Shown piece after piece: positions 17,358 to 33,201 of a stretch of DNA of 33,201 nt. A program made the position numbers and the translations under genes. Source of the stretch: an uncultured Gammaproteobacteria bacterium (lineage in GTDB: Bacteria; Cyanobacteriota; Vampirovibrionia; LMEP-6097); assembly GCA_964487825.1 (NCBI GenBank), contig CAZASO010000006.1, positions 1-33,201 of the forward strand, read 5' to 3'. The notes below the pieces were generated by a model. The model had not been told where the DNA came from, ran no database searches, and saw only the letters and a program-made list of their open reading frames with translations. Each line of letters begins with the position of its first letter. The stretch's first letter is position 1.

Positions 17358-18093
17358 AACCTGTGCGCTCCAGTTCTAGTGCTAATTCTTTGTTGCCAGT
17401 TTTGATAATGCGTCCGTGACTGAGGACATGTACGAAATCTGGTGCGACATAGTCTAGAAGCCTTTGGTAATGGGTGATCATCAAGATGGCGTTCTGAGGG
17501 CTGCGATAATTATTAATGCCAGAAGCTACAACCCTGAGAGCATCTATATCAAGCCCAGAGTCTGTCTCATCCAAGATAGCAAGAGAAGGTTGTAAGACTA
17601 AGAGTTGTAAGATTTCGTTTTTCTTTTTTTCACCGCCAGAAAAACCTTCATTAAGATCTCTACTGAGAAACTTAGGATCCATATTCAGAATTTGGCTTCG
17701 TTCTTCTAGGTAGTCATCAAAATCTAGAGGGTCCATCTCCGCTAGTCCAAGATATTTTTGTTTAGAGTTGTAAGCCATTCTAAGAAAATTAGCGTTGTTG
17801 ACACCAGCTATCTCAACAGGATATTGGAAGGAGAGGAAGAGTCCAAGATTGGCTCTCTCAGAGGCTTCTAGCTCAGTGATATCGCGTCCTTGGAAGAAGA
17901 CAGTCCCAGCGCTAATCTCATAACTAGGATGCCCAGCTAAGACTTTGGAGAGAGTGCTTTTGCCTGAACCATTGGGTCCCATGATGGCGTGTACTTCTCC
18001 AGCTTTGATGGTGAGATCTAGTCCAGTGATGATATCTTCGCCGTCTTTGAGTTTGGCATGTAAGCCCTTGATTTCTAATATATTTTTATCCAA
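17350..18093 (-). CDS. sufC: Fe-S cluster assembly ATPase SufC
   Basis: Motifs seen: [48 protein letters not shown] and ITHYQRLL. Confidence 0.95.
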
Positions 18094-19534
18094 CGCTATT
18101 CTCCAACTTTAAAGATATTAACTGGTTTGCTTCTGCTGCAAATTCTCCGGGTAATTCAGCAAAGACTTCTTTGCAAAAACCCCCAATGATAGCAGACAAG
18201 GCATCTTCAAGAGAGATGCCTCTTTGTTGAAGATAGAATAATTGTTCTTCTGAGATCTTAGAGGTAGAAGCCTCGTGCTCTACAGTGGCGCTATTGTTAT
18301 TGATCTCTATGTGAGGGCTGGTGTTGGCATGAGAGTTGGAGCCAATTAACATAGAGTCACACTGAGTATAATTTCTAGCATTCTCAGCACTAGGACTGAT
18401 TTTGACTAGACCTCTATAAGTATTTTGGGATTTGCCAGCAGAGATGCCTTTGCTGATGATAGTTGATTTAGTGTTTTTGCCTATATGAATCATCTTGCTA
18501 CCAGTATCTGCTTGCTGGACATGGTTGGTCAGAGCTACAGAATAGAATTCGCCTACACTGTTGTCTCCAAGCAGGATACAGCTAGGATATTTCCAAGTGA
18601 TAGCAGAACCAGTTTCTACTTGAGTCCAAGAGACCTTGGAATTAATTCCTGCACATTTGGCTCTTTTGGTAACAAAATTATAAATCCCACCTTTGCCATT
18701 TTCATCGCCAGCATACCAATTCTGAACTGTAGAATATTTGATCTCTGCGTTATCCAAAGCTACTAACTCTACGACAGCAGCATGTAATTGATTGCTGTCA
18801 AAAGCAGGCGCCGTGCAGCCTTCAAGGTAGGATACATAACTGTCATGGTCACAGATGATGAGGGTTCTTTCAAATTGTCCTGAGCCTTCGGTGTTGATTC
18901 TGAAGTTGGTAGAGAGTTCCAGGGGACATTTGGTTTTGGGTGGAATATAAACAAAAGTTCCATCACTAAAAACAGCTCCATTGAGAGCTGCATAAAAATT
19001 ATCAGAGCTAGGTACTACGGAAGCTAAGTATCGTTGTACTAGATCTGGATATTCTTGCAGAGCTTCAGAGATGGAGCAAAAAATTATACCTATCTCAGCG
19101 AGAGCTTTCTTGTGAGTGTTAGCGATAGAGACACTATCGAAAATAGCATCTACGGCAATACCTTCTAGGCGTTTTTGTTCTTGAAGAGGGATGCCTAATT
19201 TCTCGTAGGTTCTTAGAATTTCTGGATCTACTTCATCTAGACTGTTTTTGCTGATTTTAGTTTTGGGAGCAGAGTAGTAACTAATGTTTTGAAAATCTAT
19301 TGGCGGATATTGGACTTGAGCCCATGTGGGTTCTTTCATGCGAAGGAATTGTTCGTAAGATTTGAGCCTAAATTCTAAGACAAAACTAGGCTCTTTTTTG
19401 ATTTGAGAAATGCGCCTGATTACACTTTCAGAGAGACCCTTCTCGAAGATGTCAGATTCAAGATCGGTGGTGAAGCCATATTTGTAATCTTGGCTATTAA
19501 GTTTTTCAAGATTAAGTTCCATTAGCTGTGACAC
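18086..19534 (-). CDS. sufB: Fe-S cluster assembly scaffold protein SufB
   Basis: The 482-aa product has typical SufB stretches: [21 protein letters not shown] and [21 protein letters not shown]. Confidence 0.95.
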
Positions 19535-20004
19535 AAATCTCTTCCCTTTAGTTCGCTATGCACTGTTTGCTCGGAGCCAAGAAGTTCTTGTAGTCTGATA
19601 GATTTGAAGTAATTACTCACCATGCTAGAGATAGTGGACCAGACTGGTCTAATAGAACACTCTTTGCTATGAGCACAGACTTCTACTGAACCACTATGAT
19701 TGTTACAAAAATCATCAGCGAAGGCTTCGTCAGAGAGAGCTTGCATGATTTCTAATAAATCAATTTGACTAGCCGTTTTACTAAGACGATAACCACCCTT
19801 CTTACCTCTGACACTTTCTACAATGCAGCCTTTCTTTAATTTAAGTAAGATTTGAGCAGCATAGTCGCTGCTGATTTGTTCAGCTTCTGAAATTTCAGAG
19901 AGAGTTACTAGGTCTCTTTCGCCTTTAGATTTTTTGCTTTCTAAAATCTTCGCTAATTGCAAAATAACTCTCAGTCCATATTCTTCGTTTGCGGTTATTT
20001 TCAT
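19522..20004 (-). CDS. Rrf2-family transcriptional regulator with three-Cys cluster motif (IscR/SufR-like role inferred)
   Basis: The N-terminal winged helix reads [19 protein letters not shown] Cys motif C-x9-C-x5-C is present ([18 protein letters not shown]). It is the first gene of the suf block. Confidence 0.85.
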
Positions 20005-20059: not shown

Positions 20060-20953
20060 TTGACTAAAATTTCAAGTTTAACTCAGAAAATTAAGCTTTC
20101 TTGCTCAATGATCAAAATTGAACATACGCTTTTTTCTTTGCCTTTTGCTTTAAGTTCCGCCTTATTGGCTTTGGATTACCTCTCTAAGAGAGGAGAGTTC
20201 CCTTCTTTGCAGCATTTATCTCTCAGTCTAGTGTGGATTTCACTAGCTCTTTTTGGAGCAAGGTCTATGGGCATGGCTTTGAACCGTATCATAGACAAAG
20301 ACATAGACGCCTTAAATCCTCGCACCAAAACTAGAGAGCTTCCTTCTGCCAAGCTTGCTCTGAAAGAAGCTTATCTTTTGATTTTTTTTGCTTTAATCCT
20401 TTATATTTATGCGACTTTGCACTTGCCTAGGCTCTGTCAAATCCTCTCACCAATTCCTCTTATCTGGGTATCTATTTATCCATATCTCAAAAGATTTACA
20501 TACTTAAGTCATTTATTTTTGGGGACTACTTTGGGGGGAGCGACTTTAGGAGCTTGGATAGCTATAACTGGCAGTATTGATAATATGGCGCCACTTTATT
20601 TGGCTCTTGGAGTTATGTTTTGGGTTACAGGTTTTGATATTGTGTATGCTACTCAAGATCAAGACTTTGATCGCAGTCAGGGACTGCATTCTATTCCTCA
20701 GAGATTTGGTTTTGCTAAAGCCATATGGCTTGCTAGGTTTATGCACCTATTAACGGTTATTTGTTTGTATTTAGCTGGAGAAGTTTTGACTCTAGGTTTG
20801 GCTTATAAATTAGCTATACTTTCTGTGATCTTAGCTCTACTCTATGAACAAAAACTTGTTTCTCAGGGTCGTATAGAGCAAGCTTTTTTTGTGGTTAATA
20901 GCTGGGTCTCTGTTTTGATTTTGTTTTTTGTTGTATTGGAAGTGGCTTGGTGA
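20060..20953 (+). CDS. UbiA-family aromatic polyprenyltransferase (4-hydroxybenzoate/MqnP-like)
   Basis: Both Asp-rich motifs are present: NRIIDKDIDALNPRTKTRELPS and YATQDQDFDRSQGLHSIP. The protein is polytopic. The start is either the TTG at 20060 or the ATG at 20108 (MIKIEHTLFSLPFAL). Confidence 0.8.
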   Translation: MTKISSLTQKIKLSCSMIKIEHTLFSLPFALSSALLALDYLSKRGEFPSLQHLSLSLVWISLALFGARSMGMALNRIIDKDIDALNPRTKTRELPSAKLALKEAYLLIFFALILYIYATLHLPRLCQILSPIPLIWVSIYPYLKRFTYLSHLFLGTTLGGATLGAWIAITGSIDNMAPLYLALGVMFWVTGFDIVYATQDQDFDRSQGLHSIPQRFGFAKAIWLARFMHLLTVICLYLAGEVLTLGLAYKLAILSVILALLYEQKLVSQGRIEQAFFVVNSWVSVLILFFVVLEVAW

Positions 20954-22584
20954 TTGTTTTTCGTTACATTTCTAAATATAGGACTACTTATGCTTGGGGT
21001 TTTCTGATTTTACTTCTAGTAAATTTATTATCAGCCTATATACCCCAACTTATTCGCTCAGCGATCAATCTTCTAGAAAATACTTCTGGGCGGATTCTTG
21101 CTTTGGAGAGTCAGTTGATTAATCAAATAGTTGTTCAAATTATAGTTTTAGCTATTTTGATGGCGTTATTGAGGACTGCTTCTCGATGGCTGATTTTTGG
21201 CTTGGGGAGACAGATTGAGTATGATCTCAAGTCTGATATCTTTCAGCATTTGCTTAGGTTTGAGCCTAAATTCTTTAATAAGTATCAAGCTGGTGACTTG
21301 ATCTCTATTATGACTAATGATGTGCAGTCTATTAGAGGTATGGCTGGTTTTGCTGTGCTTAACTTGCTTAACACTATTATTGCTTTTGCAATCATAGTTC
21401 CTTTGATGTTTAAGCTTAATGCTCTTCTTACAAGTTGTTTTTTATTATTGATACCTTTAGTTTTATTGGTAGTAGCTGCAGTTAGTAAACAAATCAAAGA
21501 CTATCAAGAATTAGTTCAAGAAAAATTAGCAGAGATTAGTAGATTTATAGAACAAAATCTTTCTGCTATTCATATCATCAAAGCCTATGCCCAAGAGGCT
21601 TCTGAGCGGAAGCGTTTTCAGAAACAAAACCAATCCTTATTAGCTGATTACCTCAAACTAGTTCGAGCAAGAGCGTTTATGGGGCCTTGCATGAGGGTGA
21701 TAGCCAGTGCTGGCTTTATACTCCTTTTGTATTTTGGTTCCCAAGCGGTATATAAAGGCGAGTTTAATATTGGTGACTTTGCGGCTTATAGTTTATACAT
21801 AGAGAGATTGCTCTGGCCTATTGGGACTTTGGGTTGGTTGGTTACTATCATTTACAGAGCCAAAGTCAGTGGAGAGCGCATTCAAGGTCTTCTACAAATT
21901 CAGCCAGAGATTTGTGATGCTCCTGATGCTGTCTCTATCCGGGCTTTTGAGCGTTCCATTCAGCTACCTTATCTTTCTTTGAATCCAGTTCCAGAGATAT
22001 TGGCTGGCTCTAGTACTGCCATAGTTGGTTCTATAGGTTCTGGTAAATCCAGATTAGTTCGCAAACTTATGAGGCTAGAAGATAGTCAAGCAGGAGAGAT
22101 CTTTGTAGATGGTCTTGATATCACTAAGATTAGTCTTGAATCCTTGAGATCAGTGTTTTCTATAGTTCCTCAAGAAAGTTTTTTATTCTCTGCTACTGTT
22201 AGAGAAAACATCCTCTATGCCACTAATGATGATAGTTTGGAGCATGCAAGAGCCCTAGCAGAGTTAGTTGCCCTAGATGAAGAGATCTCCAATCTACCCC
22301 AAGCTTATGACACTCTTATTGGTGAGCGAGGCATAACTCTCTCTGGTGGTCAAAGACAGCGCATAGCTATTGCAAGAGCCTTGGCTCGCAAACCCCAAGT
22401 TCTCATCTTGGATGATGCTCTTAGTAGTGTTGATGCTCAGACGGCTGAGTTTATTATGGCTAAGATCAAAAAACTTAGACAAGGGCTCACTACTATATGG
22501 ATTACTCACAAAGCCAGTCAGGCAGAGCAAATGGACAGAGTTTTATTTATGGATTCTTACACTAAACATGCGACACGAAGATAA
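20947..22584 (+). CDS. ABC exporter permease/ATPase fusion, subunit 1 (degenerate-site half: Walker B followed by Asp)
   Basis: It has six TM helices plus an NBD. Walker A is GSIGSGKS, the signature is the canonical LSGGQRQRIAIARAL, and Walker B is VLILDD (Asp replaces the catalytic Glu). The GTG start overlaps the upstream stop (GTGA). Confidence 0.85.
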   Translation: MVIVFRYISKYRTTYAWGFLILLLVNLLSAYIPQLIRSAINLLENTSGRILALESQLINQIVVQIIVLAILMALLRTASRWLIFGLGRQIEYDLKSDIFQHLLRFEPKFFNKYQAGDLISIMTNDVQSIRGMAGFAVLNLLNTIIAFAIIVPLMFKLNALLTSCFLLLIPLVLLVVAAVSKQIKDYQELVQEKLAEISRFIEQNLSAIHIIKAYAQEASERKRFQKQNQSLLADYLKLVRARAFMGPCMRVIASAGFILLLYFGSQAVYKGEFNIGDFAAYSLYIERLLWPIGTLGWLVTIIYRAKVSGERIQGLLQIQPEICDAPDAVSIRAFERSIQLPYLSLNPVPEILAGSSTAIVGSIGSGKSRLVRKLMRLEDSQAGEIFVDGLDITKISLESLRSVFSIVPQESFLFSATVRENILYATNDDSLEHARALAELVALDEEISNLPQAYDTLIGERGITLSGGQRQRIAIARALARKPQVLILDDALSSVDAQTAEFIMAKIKKLRQGLTTIWITHKASQAEQMDRVLFMDSYTKHATRR

Positions 22585-24277
22585 ATCACAAACCAATTTT
22601 GCTTTACTTGCCTTGTTAGTGCCCTTCATTAAGCCCTACTATAAACGGGCTTTGTTGATTTTGATGTTTTTGCCTTTAGGCTCTCTTGCTTATTCGATAC
22701 AACCTACCATTATTCAAAAAGCCATAGATGGACCCATTAGTTCTTTTGCTCATTATCACAGCCTTTCAGCCTTTCTCTCTGCTTTGTATCCTTATATTTT
22801 TGCTTTGCTTGCTGCGATAGCTTTGAATTTTTATGTTCAGATTAATATGCTTTATTCCATCAACGACCTTGGTCAGCATATGGTTGCAGATATTAGGACC
22901 AAACTTTTTCAGCATCTAGAGTCTTTACCTATGACTTTTTTTGACAGGACTCCTGTTGGCAGAAATGTAACCCGCATCACTAATGATATGGAGCAATTAG
23001 CAGATAGTTTCGCTGGTGGGTTGATACTTATCGTTGTAGACATCGTGAATGCTATTGGAGTTATAGCTTTTATGTCTTACTTGAATTTGCGATTAAGTTT
23101 AGCTGTCTTGTTCTTACTCTTACCTATGTATTTTATCGCGAAGCATTTTCAAGAACAATTCCGCAAAGCCAATCTACTAGCGAGGTCTGAGCTATCACGC
23201 CTGAATTCTTTTTTGCAGCAAGCAGTTATAGGTGTGGATGTAGTGCAGGCTTTGAATGCTGGCAAGCAAAGCATGTCTAAGTTTGCAGCCATCAATAAGC
23301 AATATTACAAAGCCAATGATGACAGTATCAAAGCAGATGCTTCATTCTCTGCGACTATCGAATTAGTCGCGATTGCTGCTGTAGCTCTTTTGATTTTTCT
23401 TAGTAAAGAAATACTTATGAGCGGCACTCTGATTAGTGTTGGGGTGATCATAGCCTTCCTCCAATACGCCCAGACTCTCTTTGATCCTATCCGTAATCTT
23501 TGTGACAGGTTTAGTATCATACAGGCAGGCTTTACCGCAGCAGAGCGAGTCTCTCAACTTTTGAGTGAAGAAGAGAGTATTAGGGAGCCAGAATCACCTC
23601 AATCCTTAACTGAGCTGGCTAGGATACATGGCAGAGACTTCCCTGCTATAGAATTTCGCAATATTTATTTTAGATATAGCGAAGATACAGATTGGATCTT
23701 AGAGAACTTCAATCTCACGATCAAAGCCTCTGAGAGAGTGGCTTTGGTGGGGAGGACTGGCTCAGGCAAGAGCAGTATCGTCAAACTGCTCACTAGATTG
23801 TATGAGCCTCAGAGGGGGGAGATTCTGATTAATGGGGTTAATATTTGCAATTTTCCTCAAGAAGAACTCAGGGCTTTTGTTGCAGTGATACATCAGGATT
23901 CTTATATTTTTGCTGGAGATCTCAAATCCAATATTCTTCTGGATAGAGATCACTGTGACCTAGACTTAGCCAAACCATATATCCAAATCTTGTCAGAGAG
24001 AGCTATTGAGCTAGATACTTCTTTGGAGCAACGAGCTACTAATATTTCTAGTGGTGAAGAACAACTTATTAATTTCGCTAGAGCCATAGTGTCTAGGCCC
24101 AAAATCTTAGTTCTAGATGAGGCCACTGCCAAAATAGATCTTAAGACTGAGAAGATTTTACTAGAGGCCTTATCTGAGTACAGGCAAATAGAACAATGTT
24201 CTGTATTAGCTGTAGCTCATAGAACAGAGACTCTCTCTGATTTTGATAAAATCATCAATATTTCTGAGGATTCTTAA
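22568..24277 (+). CDS. ABC exporter permease/ATPase fusion, subunit 2 (consensus Walker B-Glu, degenerate signature)
   Basis: The ATG at 22568 (MRHEDKSQTNF...) overlaps the upstream gene by 17 nt. Walker A is GRTGSGKSS, Walker B is ILVLDEAT, and the signature is degenerate (ISSGEEQ). The longer ORF from 22370 is an out-of-frame read-through of subunit 1. Confidence 0.85.
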   Translation: MRHEDKSQTNFALLALLVPFIKPYYKRALLILMFLPLGSLAYSIQPTIIQKAIDGPISSFAHYHSLSAFLSALYPYIFALLAAIALNFYVQINMLYSINDLGQHMVADIRTKLFQHLESLPMTFFDRTPVGRNVTRITNDMEQLADSFAGGLILIVVDIVNAIGVIAFMSYLNLRLSLAVLFLLLPMYFIAKHFQEQFRKANLLARSELSRLNSFLQQAVIGVDVVQALNAGKQSMSKFAAINKQYYKANDDSIKADASFSATIELVAIAAVALLIFLSKEILMSGTLISVGVIIAFLQYAQTLFDPIRNLCDRFSIIQAGFTAAERVSQLLSEEESIREPESPQSLTELARIHGRDFPAIEFRNIYFRYSEDTDWILENFNLTIKASERVALVGRTGSGKSSIVKLLTRLYEPQRGEILINGVNICNFPQEELRAFVAVIHQDSYIFAGDLKSNILLDRDHCDLDLAKPYIQILSERAIELDTSLEQRATNISSGEEQLINFARAIVSRPKILVLDEATAKIDLKTEKILLEALSEYRQIEQCSVLAVAHRTETLSDFDKIINISEDS

Positions 24278-24717
24278 GAACCGAAATATTTCTTGAGAAA
24301 AGTTTCATCTAAACTAAATTTGCCAGCTCCATGACTAAATAAGACGGAGAGCATCATGAAATAATAAAGAGCTATCTCAAAGCCACCATCTCTTGCTGCA
24401 AATACTTGAGTTCCGTGTACCAAAAAAATAGCAACTAACATCACTGCCATTAAAGGTAAAGCTATAAAACGAGTTCCCAGACCTAAAATCAGCAAAGCCA
24501 CTCCCAGAGCTTCACTTGTGGTTGCAAGAAAAGCCATAAGCTCTGCTGCTGGTAAATGTAAGCCGTCTCGGAACCATATGATGATGTTGTCGAAATGATT
24601 GATTTTTTTGATAGCTGGCTCAAAAAAACCATAAGCGAGAATTATTCTCAGCAAGAGAAGAGAAAGGTTCTTGGATCTTCCGAATAATTTAGTTAAACCT
24701 TGTGATAATTTATCCAT
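24274..24717 (-). CDS. DoxX-family membrane protein
   Basis: The 147-aa product has four helices. Its LLLLRIILAYGFF...FLVHG...GGFEIALYYFMMLSVLFSHGAGKFSLD pattern is typical of DoxX. Confidence 0.75.
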   Translation of the reverse strand: MDKLSQGLTKLFGRSKNLSLLLLRIILAYGFFEPAIKKINHFDNIIIWFRDGLHLPAAELMAFLATTSEALGVALLILGLGTRFIALPLMAVMLVAIFLVHGTQVFAARDGGFEIALYYFMMLSVLFSHGAGKFSLDETFLKKYFGS

Positions 24718-24792: not shown

Positions 24793-26184
24793 ATGCTACA
24801 GAAATTTTTTAGTAACGAAGAAAATAGTTCAGCCAAATTTTTTCTATTTTCTGCGGTAGTTTGGCTGGTAATTGGCATGGGACTAGGCCTTCTAGGGGCC
24901 CTTGAGTTTTCGGCGCCAGATCTCACCAAAGGCATTCCCCAGCTATCTTTCACCCGTATTCGCCCAGCGCATGTAAATATAGTCGCTTTTGGCTGGCTTT
25001 CTATGGCGAATATAGGCTCAGCTTTATATATGATTCCAGCTCTTTGTAAGACCAAACTCTACTCAGAGAAGCTTGCTAATTTTGTTTGTTGGGTTTGGAA
25101 TGCTGTTGTGGCTTTTGGCGCGATTTCCCTTCTGAACGGTTACACGGAAGGCCGCGAATATGCTGAGCTTAGAGAACCTTTTGATGTTCTGGTTATAGTT
25201 GGTCTGATTCTACTTTCTTATAATCTTTTCCGTACAGTCCTAAACCGCCAAGTCAAGAAACTTTATGTTTCAGTTTGGTATATCATGGGCGCTTTTTTTT
25301 GGATGCCTTTTGTTTATATGGTAGGCAACCGTACCTTCGTTGCCATGGATGGTCTTAATGACGGGATTATGAACTGGTTCTATGGACACAACATACTCGG
25401 TATGTGGTTTACAGTTCTTGGTGTTGGTATCGCTTATTACATGCTACCTAAGATGAGCGGTAAACCAGTTTGGAGCCACTCTTTATCTATGCTAGGTTTT
25501 TGGACCATAGCTTTTTTCTATGCACCTACAGGTACTCACCATCTTTTGCAGGCCCCAGTCCCTGAGTGGCTTAAAGCCCTTGCAGTAATTTTTTCTGCGG
25601 CTTTGGTTATCCCAGTTATTTCTGTTCTCACTAATTTCTATATGACTATGAGAGGTAGTTGGTGGATGCTCAGTACTAATATGCCTCTTAGGTTTGTTAT
25701 GACAGGAGCTTTGTTCTATCTCTTTACTTGTATCCAAGGACCCTTTCAAGCTACTCGTGGTGTCAACTGGTATATCCATTTCACCCAGTGGGTTGTAGGT
25801 CATGCTCATGCTGCTTTGCTTGGTACTTTTACTTTCTTTGTTATAGGCTCTGTTTATTATGCTGTTCAGCGTTTTACTGGCAGACGCATTTATAGTGTTC
25901 GTTTGGTCAAATGGCATTATTGGTTATTGTTTATAGGTTTCTCTATATTTTATTTGGTTTTAACTGTAGCTGGTTTACAGCAGAGTGCAGGTTGGGCTTT
26001 GGGTTATCCAGTAGCACAATGGTCTCTAGTACTGGCTCCCATGTGGTTCTGTAGGGCTATTGGTGGAGCGATGATGTTCTTGTCTAGTTGTCTTTTTGCA
26101 TACAACATCTACATGACTATGAATAATCCTTCACTCTCAGATGAAACCGAATTGCAGATAGCAGTCCCAGTGGAGAAAAATTAA
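24793..26184 (+). CDS. ccoN: cbb3-type (C-family) haem-copper oxidase catalytic subunit I
   Basis: The low-spin haem His is in IRPAHVNIVAFGW and a CuB His is in WFYGHNILGMWF. The cross-link Tyr plus the CuB His pair are in FFYAPTGTHH, with Tyr 6 residues before the first His as in CcoN. The haem b3/b His pair is in WVVGHAHAALLG. Confidence 0.9.
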   Translation: MLQKFFSNEENSSAKFFLFSAVVWLVIGMGLGLLGALEFSAPDLTKGIPQLSFTRIRPAHVNIVAFGWLSMANIGSALYMIPALCKTKLYSEKLANFVCWVWNAVVAFGAISLLNGYTEGREYAELREPFDVLVIVGLILLSYNLFRTVLNRQVKKLYVSVWYIMGAFFWMPFVYMVGNRTFVAMDGLNDGIMNWFYGHNILGMWFTVLGVGIAYYMLPKMSGKPVWSHSLSMLGFWTIAFFYAPTGTHHLLQAPVPEWLKALAVIFSAALVIPVISVLTNFYMTMRGSWWMLSTNMPLRFVMTGALFYLFTCIQGPFQATRGVNWYIHFTQWVVGHAHAALLGTFTFFVIGSVYYAVQRFTGRRIYSVRLVKWHYWLLFIGFSIFYLVLTVAGLQQSAGWALGYPVAQWSLVLAPMWFCRAIGGAMMFLSSCLFAYNIYMTMNNPSLSDETELQIAVPVEKN

Positions 26185-26186
26185 TA

Positions 26187-27254
26187 ATGGCAGACGATAA
26201 AAACAAAATTGGTGCAAAAGGCTATATTCTTCCCGCTTTAGTTGTAGCGATTTCTTTCTTTACTATTTACACAGTCACTGTAATTATTCCAGATATGGCT
26301 GTCTTTAAGGCAGAGCCTAGTGCCTATGCTACAGAGTATGTGCAGACTAATGCTGATGGGGAGCTACTCTTAGATGCTGCTGGCAAGACCCAACTCAATG
26401 ACGCTGGTAAAGGGCGTGCCATCTATGTTAGAGAAGGTTGTTTTTATTGTCATTCTCAGTTTGTTAGACCTCAAGACAGAGATTTTGGCTCAAAAGTCCA
26501 AGCAGGTGACTATGCTAATGAAACCCCCAATGTCTTAGGTACATCTAGGACTGGTCCAGATCTTAGTAACGAAGGTGGCAAGATGCCAGATGCTTGGCAT
26601 TTAGGGCATCTCAAATCCCCGCGCAATTATACGCCGGGTTCCATCATGCCTTCTTTTAGCTATTTAGAGGATGAAGACCTTAGACTTCTTGTAGCCTATA
26701 TCCAAACCTTAGGCCGCAAGCGGATGGAAGATCCTGCGAATCGCTCTGTTTATGAGGCTTTCTATCCAGAAGCTGATACTGCTCTCTGGGAAGCCTCCAA
26801 AAAACACAAACCCAATGTAGATAGTGCAGCTGCAGCCAACTCTGGAGCAGGTATATTCAGGCAGAATTGTGCAGTTTGTCATGGACTCAATGGACTTGGT
26901 AATGGACCGAATGCTCTTGCCATGAACAAGAAACCAGCTAATTTCTCTAATCCTTTCTTCCTCAAATATACTAATGAGACTTGGTACTATAAAGTCGCAG
27001 AGGGAGTTCCGGGGACTCGCATGCCTCGCTGGAAGCTCAAACTAGAACCCCAACAAATGTGGTATCTAGTGGCTTACCTCAAAACCTTGCCTCGCCAAGA
27101 CGGACCTATTATTGAGCCCTATCAGTCTATAGATTTGGATGCATGGAACCAGCAGTCTGCTATAGATCCTCGCATCTTAGATAATTTCAAAAGATTAGAA
27201 GCTGCCAAAGCCGCTTCCCCAGCGGCATCTACGGAAGGAGCGTCAGGTCACTAA
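26187..27254 (+). CDS. ccoO: CcoO-like monohaem subunit II fused to an extra C-terminal class I cytochrome c domain
   Basis: It has an N-terminal TM anchor. CcoO motifs are GRAIYVREGCFYCHSQFVRPQ, SRTGPDLSNEG and SIMPSF. A second haem site, CAVCHGLNG, follows with the distal Met context GTRMPRW. Confidence 0.85.
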   Translation: MADDKNKIGAKGYILPALVVAISFFTIYTVTVIIPDMAVFKAEPSAYATEYVQTNADGELLLDAAGKTQLNDAGKGRAIYVREGCFYCHSQFVRPQDRDFGSKVQAGDYANETPNVLGTSRTGPDLSNEGGKMPDAWHLGHLKSPRNYTPGSIMPSFSYLEDEDLRLLVAYIQTLGRKRMEDPANRSVYEAFYPEADTALWEASKKHKPNVDSAAAANSGAGIFRQNCAVCHGLNGLGNGPNALAMNKKPANFSNPFFLKYTNETWYYKVAEGVPGTRMPRWKLKLEPQQMWYLVAYLKTLPRQDGPIIEPYQSIDLDAWNQQSAIDPRILDNFKRLEAAKAASPAASTEGASGH

Positions 27255-27436
27255 TGATAGATAGAGCTTACTTGCATCAGTGGATACTTAGCACTTTTCA
27301 CAAAGAAAGTCTTGCTGCTTTTGCTCTGACTTGCGTGTTCTTTTTTTTGACTTCTTTGCTTTTTGCCAAATGGGCTATGGATCACGGACAATTCACTAAT
27401 CTTGAAGAATCAAAACTGGAGATGATGGAGTTATAA
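27254..27436 (+). CDS. small single-TM protein (possible CcoQ-like accessory subunit)
   Basis: The 60-aa ORF is coupled by a TAATG overlap to the upstream gene. It has one hydrophobic helix (LAAFALTCVFFFLTSLLFA). No family was recognised. Confidence 0.5.
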   Translation: MIDRAYLHQWILSTFHKESLAAFALTCVFFFLTSLLFAKWAMDHGQFTNLEESKLEMMEL

Positions 27437-27439
27437 ACT

Positions 27440-27625
27440 ATGGATGAGATGTCGCCAATAGATCTGGATACAGGAAGAGGAGTGCCCAAAGAATTTATTA
27501 GAGGAGCCCTACCTACAGAAGAGTACAGAGTTGGTCACCATAAACCACCTTTGTTTTTAGTCGTTCTCTATGTCTTGGTTATAGTCTGGGCTGCTATTAG
27601 TTGGATACCTTTTTATGGCTACTAA
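27440..27625 (+). CDS. small single-TM protein, unknown
   Basis: The 61-aa ORF starts 3 nt after the previous stop. It has a C-terminal helix (PPLFLVVLYVLVIVWAAISWIPF). Confidence 0.5.
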   Translation: MDEMSPIDLDTGRGVPKEFIRGALPTEEYRVGHHKPPLFLVVLYVLVIVWAAISWIPFYGY

Positions 27626-27626
27626 A

Positions 27627-28421
27627 ATGAAACACACTAAACTCAAACTCCTCTCTGCCGCTCTCCTAGTGGCTTTTATGTTGGGAGCTTGTTCTTCTTA
27701 TGACCCCAACAAATCAGGGCGCACCAAAGAACTTCAGCAAGTACTCTTGGATCCCAAAGCTAGCGCAGAAGATCTAAGCTATCCAGCTTATGATCCTTCC
27801 ATCATCAAGGGCAAAGAAATTTATAAACAACATTGTGCTGCTTGTCATGCTACTAGTGCTGGACTTCCAGACCGCATCCTTACTAAAGATTATCTCAGGA
27901 CTCGTAGCCCTCAAGATCAATACCTGACTATAGTTCGGGGCAACTCCAAAGGTATGCCGAGCTTTAGAGATACTCTCACTAGAGATCAAAGATGGGATGT
28001 GCTTATGTATCTTAGATCAGAAGTCTTAGGTTATTTTCCTTTGAACTCTGAGGCTCTATCCGAGATGGACAAAATCTTTGGAGCGAACTGTGCTGTTTGT
28101 CATGGTACTAGAGGTGATGGAGATGGTCCTCTACACAAATCACTAGAACCCAAACCTGCTGACTTCAATATGTTTAGTAGACTTTATACTCGTTCTGACA
28201 ATAAAATCTTCGATGAAATCTCCAATGGTATTCCTTGGACAGCCATGCCTGCATGGAAAGACCGTTATGATTATGATTTACATTATGCTTTTGATGAAGA
28301 GCTTAGATGGAAACTTGTGAATTATGTTCGTCAGTTTGCTTTTTCACAAGAGATTTTCAGATTAGATCAAGGCCGTCAGCGCATCGCTGAATATAAAGCC
28401 AAACTAGGAGAAGCCAAATAA
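27627..28421 (+). CDS. dihaem c-type cytochrome, lipoprotein
   Basis: The ATG at 27627 lies 1 nt after the upstream stop. It gives the signal peptide MKHTKLKLLSAALLVAFMLGAC with a lipobox. Two CxxCH sites are present (CAACH, CAVCH). An alternative in-frame ATG lies at 27615. Confidence 0.8.
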   Translation: MKHTKLKLLSAALLVAFMLGACSSYDPNKSGRTKELQQVLLDPKASAEDLSYPAYDPSIIKGKEIYKQHCAACHATSAGLPDRILTKDYLRTRSPQDQYLTIVRGNSKGMPSFRDTLTRDQRWDVLMYLRSEVLGYFPLNSEALSEMDKIFGANCAVCHGTRGDGDGPLHKSLEPKPADFNMFSRLYTRSDNKIFDEISNGIPWTAMPAWKDRYDYDLHYAFDEELRWKLVNYVRQFAFSQEIFRLDQGRQRIAEYKAKLGEAK

Positions 28422-28423
28422 TT

Positions 28424-29038
28424 ATGAGTAATCAGTTTGATAGAAGAGACTTTATCAAAGCTTTGTTAGCCATACCCGTGATTGGTTCTTTTGCAGCTTT
28501 TTTGATGTCGCCTTTTGTTCGCTATCTCAAACCTACTTCTGGTCCTTTGGCTACGGCTGAAGTTTTTAAGAGACCAGACAAACCCTCTCCAGTAGAGGTT
28601 ATTAGGTTTCCTGTTGCAGATTTTTCGGAGCCTTGGTCCTTCAAATATTTTATGTTTCAAGAGACCAATCGTGAGTATACAGCGGTAGGAGAACAGATCA
28701 AAACCATACCTGGAGCTGTTGTTAGGCTTACTACTAGTACTAATGGTGTTCCTGATTTTGTAGTTTTTAGTAGAGTCTGCCCGCATCTAGGTTGTGTTTT
28801 CAATTTCGTTCCAGTAGAAGCTGAGGTTGCTGCTGGTTATAACTACAGCCCCAAACCCGGTCAAAAAGTTTTTGCTTGTCCTTGTCATTTGTCTGTCTAC
28901 GATCCTATGCAAGAAGACACCAAAGGCAGAGGCAAAGTCGTATCAGGACCAGCTCCTAGGTCTCCCTTTAAGTTTAATTTCGAGGTCAAAGAAGGCACTA
29001 TATCTATTAGTAGTCTTGAGTCAGGAGGTATATCCTAA
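28424..29038 (+). CDS. Rieske [2Fe-2S] protein with Tat signal
   Basis: The twin-arginine motif is RRDFIKALL. The cluster boxes are CPHLGC and CPCHLSVYD. Confidence 0.9.
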   Translation: MSNQFDRRDFIKALLAIPVIGSFAAFLMSPFVRYLKPTSGPLATAEVFKRPDKPSPVEVIRFPVADFSEPWSFKYFMFQETNREYTAVGEQIKTIPGAVVRLTTSTNGVPDFVVFSRVCPHLGCVFNFVPVEAEVAAGYNYSPKPGQKVFACPCHLSVYDPMQEDTKGRGKVVSGPAPRSPFKFNFEVKEGTISISSLESGGIS

Positions 29039-29040
29039 GC

Positions 29041-30468
29041 ATGTTAGCGATAGCTCAGCAATTAGTTAAATTCATTGAAGCCAAAATCAAAAATATAGAT
29101 TTTTTTGATGAAAGTTTTGTCGATAAACAAAGAGACAATGTTTGGTACAAACTTGGTCCTCTCCAGTGGATCACTTGGATGCTCACTGTTCTTTCTGGTT
29201 TGATTTTGGTGATGTGGTATATCCCTACCATGGATGAGGCTTACGATAGTATCATCATCATCCAAGAACATATCCCTTTCGGTTGGTTGATACGAGGCAT
29301 GCATAAATATGCAGCAGATGCTTTTATAGTGGTTTGTACTATGAAGATGTATCGTATGTTTATTTGCGCGGACTACAAAGGCAATAGAGAACTAAATTTA
29401 TGGATTTGTTTTTTCTTGCTGCTTTTAGGTTTTTATTCTGGTCTTTCAGGTTATCTACTGATTTGGAACCAAAGAGCTTTCTGGGCTACCAAAGTTTTTG
29501 CAACCTTCCCCGGCTATATGGATCAGTTTGGTCTCAATTTAGCTTTTCTGGGAGATACAGTCGTCAAGAAGCTTCTAGAGCTAGGAGTCCCTACTTCCCT
29601 GCCGGGAGTCGGAGTGCTCTGGGATATGAAACTACTCAACCAATACATCAACCTTAATATGGGTATGGTGACTCAGCAAATCCTTCTAGGAGGTAGTGCG
29701 ATAGGACAAGCTACTATCACAAGGTTTTACTCTATGCATATGGCTCTTTCTACTTTGGGAATTATCGTAGTGGAGTTGTATTTTTATAGCAACAAGAAAA
29801 AACGCTTCAATATCCCTTGGTCAGAGGGTTTCCTTGTTATAGCCATGGTGGCTGCGGCGGCTACAGTGTTTCCTGCAGAGATGGGTGCTCGTGCTAATCC
29901 CTCTGTAACACCTTTGCCTATACTTTCGGATTGGTATTTCTTGGCTCTTTATCAGATGTACAAATACATAGAGCCAGTCCTAGCTACTTTCATCACGATG
30001 CTTATACCTCTTACTGTACTCTCTGTACCTTTCTTTGATACTGGCAAAGAAACGAAGATCTGGAGACGACCTATCATCATGTCTCTTTGTATTATGGGAG
30101 CCCTCAATACCATAGCCTTCTCTGCTCTCATTATTATGAATATTGCCAACATCAATACAGACCCACCCTACTGGATTTTTGCTAGTACTATGATAGTTGC
30201 GGTAGGTATTTATTTTTCAGAGCTTCAGAGGGGCCGTAATCGCTGGAAGCTATTCTCTCTCTACACTCTGTTCATGTTGCTCTATTTATCTCGTATCCAT
30301 ACCGTGCCATATTTTGCTTTGACTGCTTTAGAGCCTCTACTCAAAGACACTATGTTTGCTGATGGACCTTGGGGGCGTATGTGGATTTTCTATGGAGGCT
30401 TTGCTCTCTTACATCTTTTGGTTTTAGCTATGGAGCGCAATTTAACTAAGGAGACTACGAAGTCGTGA
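29041..30468 (+). CDS. cytochrome b (full-length, extended C-terminus) lacking the two haem bH axial His ligands
   Basis: [28 protein letters not shown] aligns without gaps to b6 [51 protein letters not shown] aligns to [23 protein letters not shown]. A PEWY-type Qo motif is present as SDWYFLALY. Extra TM helices follow at the C-terminus. Confidence 0.85.
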   Translation: [475 protein letters not shown]

Positions 30469-30773
30469 AGAATTTTTCTTGGACTTACGCTTCAGTTTTT
30501 CTTTTAGCCACTTTTGCGCTATCTGGATTTTTTAATGCAGATGAATATTTCCAATCAGGGGATCTAGGGCGAGGTTTTTTTATTTCAGCTTTGAGTTTTC
30601 TTCTTTTCATTTTGGCTTTGATTTATATGGCTTACCGCATTTATGCAGAAGAAAAACAAAAATCTAATCTAAGAGTTCAATGGGGAATTTTTGAATATTT
30701 ATACGCAAGAGACCCCCAATATTCTTCTCAAACTCAGGCGCAAGATAAAACAAGGAGTTCAAATGTCAGCTAA
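30465..30773 (+). CDS. hypothetical two-TM membrane protein
   Basis: The 102-aa ORF has a GTG start overlapping the cytochrome b stop (GTGA). It has two hydrophobic helices. No family was recognised. Confidence 0.5.
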   Translation: MKNFSWTYASVFLLATFALSGFFNADEYFQSGDLGRGFFISALSFLLFILALIYMAYRIYAEEKQKSNLRVQWGIFEYLYARDPQYSSQTQAQDKTRSSNVS

Positions 30774-31104
30774 TAAAAAAAGCGATAATAATTTTATTAT
30801 AATAGCCTCCCTAGTAGCCTTGGCGAACTTGGCTGTCTTTGGCTTAATGTTTACCTTAATGGGATATTTTGAATTACTTGGTGCTGATAAATCTTATTTC
30901 GACGAAGGCAGTCTCAATAATATTCAGATTATAAATAGTCTAACTCAAGTTTTTGGTTTCAAAATAGATCCTATGCAGCATATCAAGATTAGTACTCTTG
31001 CTTATTCTGTTTGTTATGGTGTGGCTCTGCTTTCTACTGGGCTTAGTATTTTTATTGCGACTAGAAAAGCAAAAGAGCAATATGAGGTGAGTGATTGTGT
31101 TTAG
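30763..31104 (+). CDS. hypothetical two-TM membrane protein
   Basis: The ATG at 30763 is preceded by AAGGAG with a 5-nt spacer. The longer frame from 30691 lacks an RBS. The product begins MSANKKSDNNFIIIASLVALANLAVFGLMF.... Confidence 0.5.
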   Translation: MSANKKSDNNFIIIASLVALANLAVFGLMFTLMGYFELLGADKSYFDEGSLNNIQIINSLTQVFGFKIDPMQHIKISTLAYSVCYGVALLSTGLSIFIATRKAKEQYEVSDCV

Positions 31105-32218
31105 TGTAATAGTAAGACAAGGGCAAAAATTATTTCTCAGGATAGAGGATGCTATTAATCGCATCTTTGGATCCGAGCAGAACATACTCTACTATCATGG
31201 TGCTGTTCCTAATTTCTTTCTCTGGGTTTTATTACTCTCTGGACTTTTACTTTTTGTCTACTATATGCCAACCCTAGAGGGTGCTTATTTATCAGTTGAA
31301 TATATTACTGGCAAAGTCGCTTTTGGTGACATGATCAGAGGCATACACCGCTATGCTGCTGATGGCATGCTCATAGCAGTTTTATTGCACGCTCTTAGAG
31401 TTTATTTTACGGATAGATACCGTCAGTATCGTATTATTGCTTGGTATTCTGGTATCGCTTTATTGTTTATGATGACCATCATAGGCATCTCTGGCTATAT
31501 CCTAGTCTGGGACGAGCGTTCATATATTATAGTCATGAAATTAGCAGACTTATTGAATTCTATTCCTTTGATAGGACCCGGTATGGCTCATGCTTTTATC
31601 AATGATGATGTCATTTCCAATTACACAATGTCCATGGCTTTCTTTTTACATACAGGAATGTCTTTCGCTCTGCTGGTGATGTTGTGGGTCCACTATATGC
31701 GTATTTCTAGACCAGTCGTTAATGTCTCTTGGGGCATAGGATCTCTATTGATGGGAATAGTGCTTGTGGTAGCGGGGCTCTATCCAGCGAACTCAGGTCC
31801 AGAAGCAGTTATGACGCGGGTCCCAGAGTATTTTGCTATGGATTGGTTCTACTTATGGTTATTTCCTTTGATGGATAATCTTGGTAATTTAGCTACGGTT
31901 TTGTTTATAGTAGCCCTGACAGTTTTCTTAGTGCTCTTGCCCAACTTTGTTGATGGAGGGGATAGAGAACCAGCTTTAGTAGACTCTGATCACTGCGTTG
32001 GCTGCAAACTTTGTTCTATAGATTGTCCTTACGAAGCTATTTATATGGCTCCTAGAACTGATGGCAGCAAATACAAAGAAATCGCAGTCGTAATCAGTGA
32101 CCGCTGTTCAGAGTGCGGACTCTGTGTTGGAGCTTGTAATTTTGATGCGATAGAGATACCAACTCTAAGGTCTCCTGTTGTGATGGATGATATAAGGATA
32201 GCTCTACAAAAAGCTTAG
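31091..32218 (+). CDS. cytochrome b paralogue (four His ligands intact, six TM helices) fused to a C-terminal 2x[4Fe-4S] ferredoxin domain
   Basis: Helix B reads GIHRYAADGMLIAVLLHALRVYF (H86/H100). Helix D reads FFLHTGMSFALLVMLWVHYMR (H187/H201). An ef-loop motif AMDWFYLW is present. Two ferredoxin motifs follow: CVGCKLCSIDCP and CSECGLCVGACN. The start is the GTG at 31091 or the GTG at 31097; the latter has better spacing to GAGG at 31085-31088. Confidence 0.8.
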   Translation: MIVFSVIVRQGQKLFLRIEDAINRIFGSEQNILYYHGAVPNFFLWVLLLSGLLLFVYYMPTLEGAYLSVEYITGKVAFGDMIRGIHRYAADGMLIAVLLHALRVYFTDRYRQYRIIAWYSGIALLFMMTIIGISGYILVWDERSYIIVMKLADLLNSIPLIGPGMAHAFINDDVISNYTMSMAFFLHTGMSFALLVMLWVHYMRISRPVVNVSWGIGSLLMGIVLVVAGLYPANSGPEAVMTRVPEYFAMDWFYLWLFPLMDNLGNLATVLFIVALTVFLVLLPNFVDGGDREPALVDSDHCVGCKLCSIDCPYEAIYMAPRTDGSKYKEIAVVISDRCSECGLCVGACNFDAIEIPTLRSPVVMDDIRIALQKA

Positions 32219-32226
32219 GAGATTTT

Positions 32227-32655
32227 ATGGCAGAAAGCACTACAAGCAAATCAGCAAAAGAAGTTCAAATAGTAGTTATCGCTTGTCGTCGTAGCGTAAA
32301 CCTCGATGGGCAACTAGAAGAGACTACTAAACTCAAAGGAGTCTCTAACTGTCAGGTTATACAAGTACCTTGTAGCGGCATGATACAACCCCGCATGATA
32401 GAGTCTGCCTTCAAAGCAGGTGCTGATGGCACTATAGTTATGGGTTGCCAAATAGGTGATTGTCATTTCCGCGAGGGTAATAAGTTCTGCCGTGAAAGAC
32501 TTCTTGGCAAAAGACCACCAGTCATCAAAAAATCTGTTCCTAAAAATAGACTTAGAGGTTTTTGGATGTCAGAAGTGCAACTGGCTGATTTCAAGTCTAG
32601 GATTGAAGACTTCAAGGGACATGTTGCAGAAGAACTTTCTAAGGAGACCAAATAA
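32227..32655 (+). CDS. MvhD/FlpD-like Fe-S protein (methyl-viologen-reducing hydrogenase delta-subunit family)
   Basis: VIQVPCSGMIQPRMIESAFKAGADGTIVMGCQIGDCHFREGNKFCRERL and RLRGFWMSE match the FlpD/MvhD core. The N-terminal CCNWC-type motif is reduced to IACRRS. AGGAG lies 5 nt upstream of the ATG. Confidence 0.75.
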   Translation: MAESTTSKSAKEVQIVVIACRRSVNLDGQLEETTKLKGVSNCQVIQVPCSGMIQPRMIESAFKAGADGTIVMGCQIGDCHFREGNKFCRERLLGKRPPVIKKSVPKNRLRGFWMSEVQLADFKSRIEDFKGHVAEELSKETK

Positions 32656-32762
32656 TGAGCAAAGACAATGTTTCGGTTCTTTTTGAGAATATAGTTTTTT
32701 ATTTGATATTTTTTTTCAGTCTATTGTTAATCGCAAGTTTTGGCATTATTGCAGAAGCTTAA
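32655..32762 (+). CDS. unannotated 35-codon ORF, predicted single-TM peptide
   Basis: The ATG at 32655 overlaps the MvhD-like stop (TAATG). AAGGAG at 32641-32646 lies 8 nt upstream. The product is MSKDNVSVLFENIVFYLIFFFSLLLIASFGIIAEA. It is below the 60-aa cut-off of the ORF track. Confidence 0.4.
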   Translation: MSKDNVSVLFENIVFYLIFFFSLLLIASFGIIAEA

Positions 32763-32763
32763 T

Positions 32764-32811
32764 GCTCGCTGTCTTGCAACTCATCTACGCTCGCTGTCTT
32801 GCAACTCATCT
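32764..32811. repeat. perfect tandem direct repeat, 2 x 23 nt (GCTCGCTGTCTTGCAACTCATCT) separated by AC
   Basis: The copies at 32764-32786 and 32789-32811 are identical. The 25-nt period is not a multiple of 3. The repeat starts 2 nt after the stop of the last ORF of the operon. Confidence 0.9.
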
Positions 32812-32836
32812 GCTGTGTTGTGCTTCGCTGCATTGT

Positions 32837-33095
32837 AGCTAGCTGAGCACTTGCTACTTAGCCTAGGCTCGAGCTGGCTTCGCACAAGCGCAGTTAAGCT
32901 CATCACCTCATCGCTAACGCGCCCATTCGGCTCGGCACCAGCACATGGCATTTTGCTACGCAAAACGCTCATGGCTGCTGAACTCAGGGTCCTTCGCCCC
33001 TCGCCATGGTCGCTAGCTCTCTCGGCTCTTCGCTAATCTGCGCTAGTACTCACACAGATTCTCGCTACGGCTAAGAGCAAGTACTCAGCTAAGCT
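32837..33095. other. GC-rich non-coding element closed by a long imperfect inverted repeat (candidate structured RNA or MITE-like element)
   Basis: The arms at 32837-32873 and 33061-33095 can form about 32 Watson-Crick pairs with four small bulges and one mismatch. An internal hairpin lies at 32944-32973 with 12 pairs. Local G+C is about 53-60%, against about 38% in flanking genes. There is no credible ORF. Confidence 0.5.
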
Positions 33096-33201
33096 TTCAA
33101 AGCCGTTTACCTAGTGCTTTATAGGAAGATTCGATAAATAATCATTTTGGCTCGGTATCTCGGTTATAGACTAGAGGACTATGCGCTCACACTTTAGGCA
33201 T

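Follow-up and report, generated by a model that had tools for sequence, protein, structure and literature searches.

A widespread clade of Rieske-associated cytochromes b lacks both His ligands of haem bH and is nearly always encoded together with a second, four-His cytochrome b

We analyzed a 33,201-nucleotide stretch of DNA from an uncultured bacterium of the GTDB class Vampirovibrionia (contig CAZASO010000006.1 of assembly GCA_964487825.1), hereafter called the window, in which an open reading frame (ORF) at 29041–30468 encodes a cytochrome b next to a Rieske iron-sulfur (Fe-S) protein. In this cytochrome b, named b1 here, both His ligands of haem bH, the haem on the negative (N) side of the membrane, are replaced, and both ligands of haem bL, on the positive (P) side, are kept. 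The replacement defines a clade spread over several bacterial phyla, and nearly all clade loci with enough flanking DNA also encode a second cytochrome b (b2) with the full set of four haem His and a fused ferredoxin domain (b2-Fd). We propose that b1 and b2 belong to one complex in which the low-potential electron would be relayed from b1 to b2, a reading to which we assign a probability of roughly one half.

The case for the loss of the bH ligands begins with the residues themselves. The haem bL ligands of helix B (H88, codon CAT at 29302–29304) and helix D (H233, CAT at 29737–29739) are both present. At the haem bH position of helix B stands a Lys (K102, AAG at 29344–29346), and at that of helix D stand Y247 (TAT, 29779–29781) and F248 (TTT, 29782–29784), two residues and more beyond E245 (GAG, 29773–29775). 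A preliminary description of this DNA, based on an ungapped alignment by eye, had named the same kept and replaced sites, and it was right on each of them; the register of helix D varies by up to 2 residues with the alignment method, so that E245, Y247 or F248 falls opposite the canonical His, and none of these is His. The same description held that helices A–D contain no other His. Indeed, b1 has five His in total (77, 88, 233, 420 and 458), of which H77 lies in the A–B loop before helix B and H420 and H458 lie in the C-terminal extension, helix B spanning residues 81–108 and helix D residues 223–251 in a confident AlphaFold2 model. Because these three His are outside helices A–D, no register shift can put a His at a bH position of b1.

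Three independent alignments concur that both bH His are replaced. Using phmmer against a cytochrome b6 of the Protein Data Bank (PDB), K102 is placed opposite the second His of helix B and F248 opposite the second His of helix D. The same ligand picture is obtained with a MAFFT alignment of 120 homologues (47–89% identity), the b2 of the window and cytochrome b6, in which H88 and H233 are invariant. Finally, a profile hidden Markov model (HMM) was trained solely on 96 canonical four-His cytochromes b, and 18 diverse clade members were aligned to it. Both bL columns are His in 18/18 members, the helix-B bH column is Arg in 16 and Lys in 2, and the helix-D bH column holds Tyr (8), His (5), Glu (3), Phe (1) or a gap (1); in another alignment, canonical cytochromes b have His at the helix-B bH site in 90/90 cases and at the helix-D bH site in 88/90. 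Even this model, built on the canonical arrangement, brings no His to the bH columns of b1 by a shift of register.

Near and distant relatives of b1 carry the replacement as well. Among the 120 homologues, column 102 is Arg in 80 and Lys in 39 and is never His, column 245 is Glu in 120/120, and column 247 is Tyr in 119/120. The wider clade was marked off by a score gap when 1.84 billion representative proteins were scanned in full with b1: the most distant full-length clade members have expectation values (E) of 1e-66 to 1e-112 and ordinary cytochromes b start at about 1e-30, with clade fragments scoring down to about 1e-38 and three remote members (P0140, P0145 and P0147) near 1e-30. Arg or Lys occupies the helix-B site throughout the clade, and Glu stands at position 245 in all members except P0145; nearly all non-clade proteins listed in the scan have His at all four positions. 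Lys102 is restricted to the subclade of the window and three Holophagaceae loci (L027, L028 and L031), with Arg elsewhere. Position 247 varies in the wider clade (Tyr, His, Arg, Phe or Leu), His being retained in five family representatives (e.g. P0125–P0127, P0131 and P0134). The question raised earlier, whether Lys and Tyr are conserved, thus has a divided answer: the basic residue is kept, Arg being commoner than Lys, and Tyr247 is not conserved family-wide.

In a taxonomic scan with one genome per species, the clade was found in Vampirovibrionia (Melainabacteria), namely Obscuribacterales, Vampirovibrionales and Caenarcaniphilales, and also in Holophagaceae, metagenome-assembled genomes (MAGs) of Deinococcales, Armatimonadota, Sysuimicrobiota and a MAG of Anaerolineae, with a more distant presence in Caldisericia. 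In the fetched loci, Arg at position 102 is written with five different codons and Lys with two, and Glu at position 245 with either of its two codons; this synonymous variation indicates selection on the residues. An artefact of sequencing or assembly, or the decay of a pseudogene in a single genome, could account for Y247, whose TAT codon is one transition away from the His codon CAT. But the AAG of K102 is at least two changes from any His codon, the ORF is intact and of full length, and the same replacements recur in each of the 120 homologues and, with varying synonymous codons, in independent assemblies of several phyla, by which such an explanation is refuted and keeps practically no probability. 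We are highly confident that the loss of the bH ligands is an ancient and selected trait.

Judged from its sequence, b1 is a functional, quinol-oxidizing cytochrome b that serves the quinol oxidation (Qo) side of a Rieske/cytochrome b complex. It scores above the cut-offs of the Pfam families Cytochrome_B (PF00033; 82.9 bits, cut-off 27.2) and Cytochrom_B_C (PF00032; 30.6 bits, cut-off 20.7). The AlphaFold2 model, computed without cofactors from 149 aligned sequences, canonical cytochromes b among them, shows ten long helices containing the eight-helix cytochrome b core (predicted local distance difference test (pLDDT) 86.9, predicted template modelling (pTM) score 0.87); an earlier model from 35 close homologues (pLDDT 59) was discarded. 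Foldseek matches the model to the bc1 cytochromes b 2yiu_A, 7jrg_C and 1zrt_C with template modelling (TM) scores of 0.6–0.7 on target length and E of about 1e-10 over about 400 columns. In 28 diverse clade members, the end of helix C with the cd1 segment (GYLLxWxQRxxWAT) and the ef-loop region of the Qo motif are invariant or nearly so, the motif being SDWY (29926–29937 in the window) instead of PDWY/PEWY. Of the hallmarks of the family, b1 therefore lacks the set of four invariant His on helices B and D, having H88 and H233 alone, and possesses the Qo elements (cd1 helix and PxWY-type motif) and an adjacent Rieske gene with both cluster boxes (CPHLGC and CPCHLSVY), ending 2 nucleotides before the b1 start. 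The earlier statement that a Qo motif and a Rieske partner are retained is thereby borne out.

Other parts of b1 also set it apart. An acidic motif near the N-terminus (D20-x-F22-D23-E24, within residues 1–25, 29041–29115), facing the cytoplasm, shows little or no variation across the clade and has no equivalent in the canonical consensus; the ferredoxin domain or MvhD, an Fe-S protein encoded in the same operon, could dock there. On the P side, about 40 residues are inserted between the cd helices and helix D (about 165–205, 29533–29655). The insertion is present in the subclade of the window and takes a different form in P0096 and P0122, and residues 185–199 within it are predicted at pLDDT below 50. 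In NCBIfam, no model scores above its cut-off for b1 or b2; the best match of both is cytb_ExtP (119 and 129 bits, respectively, far below the cut-off of 290), the b-type cytochrome of a selenite/tellurite reduction operon.

The second cytochrome b has the ligands that b1 has lost. The b2-Fd gene starts 623 bp past the b1 stop codon and encodes six helices with all four haem His (H86, H100, H187 and H201), followed after the sixth helix by a cytoplasmic 2×[4Fe-4S] ferredoxin domain with eight Cys. Among 36 orthologues, each of the four His and eight Cys is at least 90% conserved. The cd1 signature is lost, and the Qo motif has the form xD[WVLA][FWL][FY], in which Asp is the sole conserved residue (MDWF in the window). 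Conservation in the two proteins is complementary: b1 keeps the Qo elements and the bL ligands and loses those of bH, and b2 keeps the four His with a degenerate Qo motif. The preliminary description had concluded that the return path of a classical Q cycle seems to be missing from this subunit. This stands for b1, but for the complex as a whole the picture was incomplete, the co-encoded four-His b2-Fd and MvhD having been overlooked. The signature H[KR]Y[GA]AD after the first His of helix B is common to b1 and b2, and the best non-self matches of b2 are members of the b1 family, slightly above canonical proteins; these similarities weakly suggest that b1 and b2 arose by duplication.

To follow the two genes across genomes, the ORFs found in 84 fetched loci were searched for matches to the window proteins. 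The run of Rieske, b1, b2-Fd and MvhD genes is found in 38/39 clade loci with enough flanking DNA, from at least six phyla, and the module has a fixed order of Rieske, b1, two small membrane proteins, b2-Fd, MvhD-like protein and a tiny membrane peptide. At loci of canonical four-His cytochromes b, the b2-Fd/MvhD pair was found in 0/36. An apparent match to the pair at L064 was rejected, being HdrA with MvhD/G/A hydrogenase genes, and b2-Fd matches at L054, L058, L061, L068, L071, L072, L074 and L076 are without an MvhD match and were read as the N-terminal halves of split b6-type genes. The four-gene core is constant and the high-potential side is variable. Genes for a cbb3-type oxidase lie upstream in most lineages; in Armatimonadota, L040 has a cytochrome c alone ahead of the Rieske gene and the related L037 and L038 have no cbb3 matches, and at a Sysuimicrobiota locus an oxidase is encoded downstream.

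Two of the fetched loci deserve a description of their own. In L042 (3700–9726), from a MAG of Caldisericia, an anaerobe, the module is rearranged and has no adjacent oxidase genes: the order is Rieske, b2-Fd, MvhD, a Fer4 protein, a Fer4_22 protein, an NAD_binding_1/DHODB Fe-S flavoprotein and a b1 of the Arg/Glu type. L064 (2210–11454), from a Chloroflexi MAG, carries HdrC/B-like, HdrA, MvhD, MvhG and MvhA genes directly upstream of three more, which encode a b6-type cytochrome b that has a CxxCH extension at its N-terminus, a subunit IV (PEWY) and a Rieske protein. An Hdr/Mvh system might here be linked to a Rieske/cytochrome b complex in a different way.

Whether b1 still holds an N-side haem is a separate matter from the loss of its His ligands. 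The surroundings of the site have changed too. A Gly of helix C, which packs against haem bH in bc1 structures, is present in 90/90 canonical proteins and is Ala, Ser, Cys or Gly in the clade (C123 in the window); an apparent change of this Gly to Phe was dismissed as the artefact of a one-residue gap in the phmmer alignment, since both the ungapped and the MAFFT alignments put C123 at the Gly site. Trp120, found in 89/90 canonical proteins, is relaxed in the clade, and other pocket positions differ from canonical to clade as follows: 43, Leu to Tyr/Trp; 104, Leu/Ala to Tyr/Phe; 245, Ala/Gly to Glu; 248, Leu to Phe. Because Arg is the commonest residue at the helix-B site, position 247 is variable, the helix-C Gly is lost and the N side is bulkier, we favor the reading that b1 binds only haem bL, and we consider it likely that haem bH is truly absent. 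The basic residue of helix B (mostly Arg, Lys in the window) and the invariant Glu of helix D would pair up in place of the haem site, an ion pair tying the two helices together where His-Fe-His used to be, with bulky aromatic residues filling the remaining space. Such an R/K102–E245 pair is probably the simplest reading of the invariant basic and Glu residues that face each other.

Alternatively, b1 might keep an N-side haem by unusual ligation, from the Lys/Arg side, from Glu245/Tyr247, or as a five-coordinate high-spin haem, in which case b1 alone would conduct electrons across the membrane, possibly with new N-side chemistry. Haems with Glu or Tyr as a ligand are known elsewhere, for example in cytochrome bd and catalase, and His247 is found in the five family representatives mentioned above. 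What also weighs against an empty site is that Gly39 of helix A is invariant in the clade, as is Arg105, three residues past the lost helix-B ligand and mostly Arg in canonical proteins, and that the residue at 123 has stayed small. As the helix-A Gly gives space to the edge of haem bn (PMC5600118), conservation of Gly39 and Arg105 leaves room for a flat cofactor at the N-side site of b1; moreover, cytochrome bc1 mutants in which Lys replaces a His ligand of haem b remain low spin and functional (PMC4807273). However, the helix-B residue is mostly Arg, which is no haem ligand, and Lys occurs mainly in the subclade of the window. The variability of position 247 further speaks against ligation from helix D, and Tyr247 was rejected as a family-wide ligand on this ground. 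Together with the replaced helix-C Gly, the bulkier pocket positions and the small subunits, s3, s4 and the tiny peptide, in which no conserved His was found as a substitute ligand, these observations make an unusually ligated haem improbable in our view.

If b1 indeed lacks haem bH, the low-potential electron needs another way out, and we hypothesize that b2 provides it. In the proposed mechanism, a b1/b2 heterodimer would take the place of the usual cytochrome b homodimer. Quinol would be oxidized at the Qo site of b1, the first electron passing from the Rieske protein to the dihaem cytochrome c and on to the cbb3-type oxidase, and the second reducing haem bL of b1. From there the electron would exit sideways to b2, most likely by a bL-to-bL step, and would continue from bL to bH of b2 and hence to the N side. 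It could end at a quinone site on b2, so that a Q cycle would be kept with a single N-side site, or it could pass through the fused 2×[4Fe-4S] domain to the MvhD-like protein and a cytoplasmic acceptor. Precedent for the sideways step comes from cytochrome bc1, whose dimer brings its two bL haems within electron-transfer distance (PMC4152375; PMC4330944). More specifically, a bc1 engineered with a bH knockout in one monomer and a Qo knockout in the other sustains photoheterotrophic growth via the bL-bL bridge, and bc1 with bH knockouts in both monomers supports no growth (PMC4152375).

Of the two ends, the Fe-S/MvhD route is favored as a real one by how strictly the eight Cys and MvhD are conserved. 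A cytoplasmic exit is plausible. The window encodes no NAD-binding subunit; the NAD-binding Fe-S flavoprotein in the L042 cluster points to pyridine nucleotides as the partner in the Caldisericia lineage. The stricter proposal, that the module is a natural heterodimer without any Q cycle, in which quinol oxidation at Qo of a one-haem b1, driven by the pull of the cbb3 oxidase branch, would send the low-potential electron via b2, two [4Fe-4S] clusters and MvhD to a cytoplasmic acceptor such as NAD(P)+, ferredoxin or a disulfide, is one that we hold only tentatively and regard as having clearly less than an even chance.

It is also conceivable that b1 and b2 are two separate enzymes that merely share an operon. 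The Rieske protein and b1 would then act as a quinol:cytochrome c oxidoreductase without a Q cycle, delivering both electrons to the high-potential chain and using bL as a transient store, and b2-Fd with MvhD would be an independent link from the quinone pool to a cytoplasmic redox partner. Cytochromes b fused to 4Fe-4S and MvhD domains do occur elsewhere without a Rieske protein (PDWF-FeS clade; Magnetospirillum and Turneriella; PMC4122944), so that b2 could act alone, and co-inheritance of one operon would by itself yield the same co-occurrence of b1 and b2. In addition, the single exception among the 39 clade loci, the Vampirovibrionales MAG locus L021 (9911–20702; R102, E245 and Y247), encodes a bH-less b1, followed by two small ORFs and an opposite-strand gene, with no b2-Fd or MvhD within 9 kb downstream. 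Against separate enzymes stands the finding that symmetric loss of bH abolishes cytochrome bc1 function in vivo (PMC4152375). Invariant bL ligands and Qo elements would be difficult to account for if the haem of b1 were a dead end from which electrons cannot leave, and the degenerate Qo-type elements of b2 leave it without an obvious quinol site. The complementary losses and the 38/39 linkage across phyla point the same way. Finally, the tiny peptide encoded by the last gene of the operon, beyond b2-Fd and MvhD, is the C-terminal helix of b1 itself in P0125, P0131 and P0134, of which P0125 lies in the same operon, and this fusion argues that the operon encodes one assembly. We therefore judge two independent enzymes to be unlikely, and continue with the b1-to-b2 relay as the preferred reading.

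The b1 gene is the seventh of a twelve-gene operon (Table 1).

Table 1. Genes of the operon in the window, with the support for each assignment.
Gene	Product	Coordinates	Strand	Length	Support
1	CcoN-like catalytic subunit of a cbb3-type (C-family) haem-copper oxidase	24793–26184	+	463 aa	Pfam COX1, E=7e-92
2	CcoO-like (FixO) protein with C-terminal class I cytochrome c domain	26187–27254	+	355 aa	Pfam FixO, Cytochrom_C / Cytochrome_CBB3
3	Small membrane protein s1	27254–27436	+	60 aa	ORF
4	Small membrane protein s2	27440–27625	+	61 aa	blastp in most family loci, 36–77% identity
5	Dihaem c-type cytochrome, lipoprotein-type signal (LGAC)	27615–28421	+	268 aa	Pfam Cytochrome_CBB3 and Cytochrom_C
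6	Rieske [2Fe-2S] protein, twin-arginine signal (RRDFIK)	28424–29038	+	204 aa	Pfam Rieske
7	Cytochrome b1	29041–30468	+	475 aa	Intact full-length ORF, 10 predicted helices
8	Small two-helix membrane protein s3	30465–30773	+	102 aa	ORF
9	Small two-helix membrane protein s4	30763–31104	+	113 aa from ATG 30763	ORF
10	Cytochrome b2-Fd	31091–32218	+	375 aa	Pfam Cytochrome_B and Fer4 families
11	MvhD/FlpD-like iron-sulfur protein, cytoplasmic	32227–32655	+	142 aa	Pfam FlpD, E=1e-23
12	One-helix membrane peptide, C-terminus FGIIAEA	32655–32762	+	35 aa	C-terminal pattern

For the CcoN-like protein, which is encoded upstream of the module in most loci, the top NCBIfam match is ccoN, below its cut-off. 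The fusion in the CcoO-like protein is conserved in related loci and gives it a CcoO-CcoP-like character; no separate CcoP gene is present. The dihaem cytochrome c shows two Pfam stretches, is encoded directly upstream of the Rieske gene in most loci and is likely the acceptor of the Rieske electron. In the Rieske orthologues, box I reads CPHLGC in 36/43 and box II CPCHLS[VI]Y in 39/43. Of the small proteins, s1 is conserved in the close subclade and weakly FixS-like in relatives, s3 (32–42% identity in the close subclade) has a gene of the same size and position in relatives, and s4 (48–55% identity in the close subclade) has a gene of the same size in distant loci. The MvhD gene comes next after b2-Fd wherever the contig continues, and its stop codon overlaps the start of the tiny-peptide ORF (TAATG). 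Using the strict pattern FG[LIVM][LIVM][AS]E, peptides ending in FG[LI][IV]AE[AF] were found after MvhD in 27 fetched loci and the window, across phyla, with variant endings in 5 further loci.

Upstream of the operon, the minus strand encodes an Rrf2-family regulator with SufB, SufC, SufD and SufS-like proteins (15025–20004). These are followed by a UbiA-family prenyltransferase gene (20060–20953), two CydDC-like ATP-binding cassette (ABC) genes with fused membrane and ATPase domains (20947–24277) and, on the minus strand, a DoxX protein gene (24274–24717); the UbiA and ABC genes precede the operon in the relative L001 too. Just past the operon, a 23-bp direct repeat, gctcgctgtcttgcaactcatct, is present in two copies 25 bp apart (32764–32811), where about 340 bp of non-coding DNA of unusual composition begin (32760–33100). 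Rfam and tRNA scans of the window, including this stretch, gave no match.

How b1 relates to known systems can be judged from the features that it shares with each of them. Like the long cytochrome b of canonical bc1, it has N- and C-terminal Pfam domains, the eight-helix core, the bL ligands, the cd1 helix, an xDWY-type Qo motif and an adjacent Rieske gene. Unlike it, b1 has both bH His replaced, the helix-C Gly lost and two extra C-terminal helices, and its clade has the R/K102–E245 pair, the N-terminal D-x-F-D-E motif and, in 38/39 loci, a second cytochrome b. A functional parallel is found in the cross-inactivated bc1 heterodimers engineered in the Osyczka laboratory (PMC4152375; PMC4330944), in which one cytochrome b without bH keeps Qo and the other without Qo keeps bH. 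The engineered proteins were made in the laboratory by fusing near-identical subunits that carry point mutations, whereas b1 and b2 are natural, diverged paralogues whose association we infer, and the bH-containing partner b2 additionally carries Fe-S domains.

Loss of bH ligands in nature has a precedent in Pyrobaculum, where it is likewise lineage-wide and was read as haem loss (Kao and Hunte, 2014; PMC4122944). There, the helix-D (fourth) His alone is lost, in one archaeal genus and with no partner cytochrome b reported, whereas in b1 both bH ligands are lost, in several bacterial phyla. The short cytochromes b of subfamily K, from the cyanobacterial lineage, also have the haem His of helix 2 replaced (Dibrova et al., 2017; PMC5600118). 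These are four-helix proteins with Glu/Gln at that site, without the helix-1 Gly and mostly without a subunit IV of their own; b1, in contrast, is long, keeps Gly39, has Arg/Lys at the site and has its own Rieske partner.

The cytoplasmic side of the module resembles two other groups. By domain content, on which the comparison is based, b2-Fd and MvhD match the PDWF-FeS clade of Kao and Hunte (2014; PMC4122944), in which cytochrome b is combined with 4Fe-4S and MvhD domains; that clade is reported to have the PDWF motif and no Rieske gene in its cluster. In the module described here, MvhD has a gene of its own, the motif has degenerated (MDWF in the window, with Asp alone conserved among orthologues), and a Rieske gene is present in the fetched loci whose contigs reach upstream of b1. 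The anammox Rieske/cytochrome b complexes share the idea of a cytoplasmic Fe-S exit from the N side for the low-potential electron: in the proposal of Kartal et al., a cytoplasmic NAD(P) reductase takes this electron away from the Q cycle (PMC12954380). Those complexes have split b6-type cytochromes b with all haems and haem cn, are homodimers in the models and contain multihaem cytochromes c, whereas b1 probably lacks bH, b2 would supply it and the operon of the window encodes no NAD(P)-binding Fe-S flavoprotein.

The complex III/IV operon of Melainabacteria has been annotated as b6f-like and discussed for the ancestor of Cyanobacteria (PMC6349859). Unlike in b6f, b1 is not split but has both domains in one polypeptide of 475 aa. 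The CxGG motif of haem cn is absent from b1, the YCLGG of b6 corresponding to YKLGP with K37 in place of Cys (phmmer), and column 37 of the clade is Ala, Leu, Thr or Ile. Scores against the NCBIfam models of cytochrome b6 (106.9 bits, cut-off 325) and subunit IV (43.9 bits, cut-off 127) are below threshold. Since the operon of the window is the Melainabacteria complex III/IV cluster and differs from b6f in these respects, the ancestor inference that was based on b6f needs revisiting.

In the open-access literature, we found no description of the double ligand loss, of the R/K–E pair or of the b1/b2 module. Before analyzing their large survey, Kao and Hunte set aside every sequence in which one or more of the four His was missing (PMC4122944); the clade would not appear there, and this filter may explain why it has gone unremarked. 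The b1/b2 module is conserved and widespread. The four haem His of cytochrome b, usually treated as invariant, are not invariant. If b1 and b2 form one complex, it would be a natural counterpart of the engineered cross-inactivated dimer and, if true, direct evidence for a physiological use of the bL-bL bridge (PMC4152375). Should the low-potential electron leave through the Fe-S domains, the module would represent quinone-based electron bifurcation whose output is cytoplasmic, in aerobes related to Cyanobacteria as well as in several other phyla, and, being found in aerobes, it may be an easier system than anammox (PMC12954380) in which to study such bifurcation.

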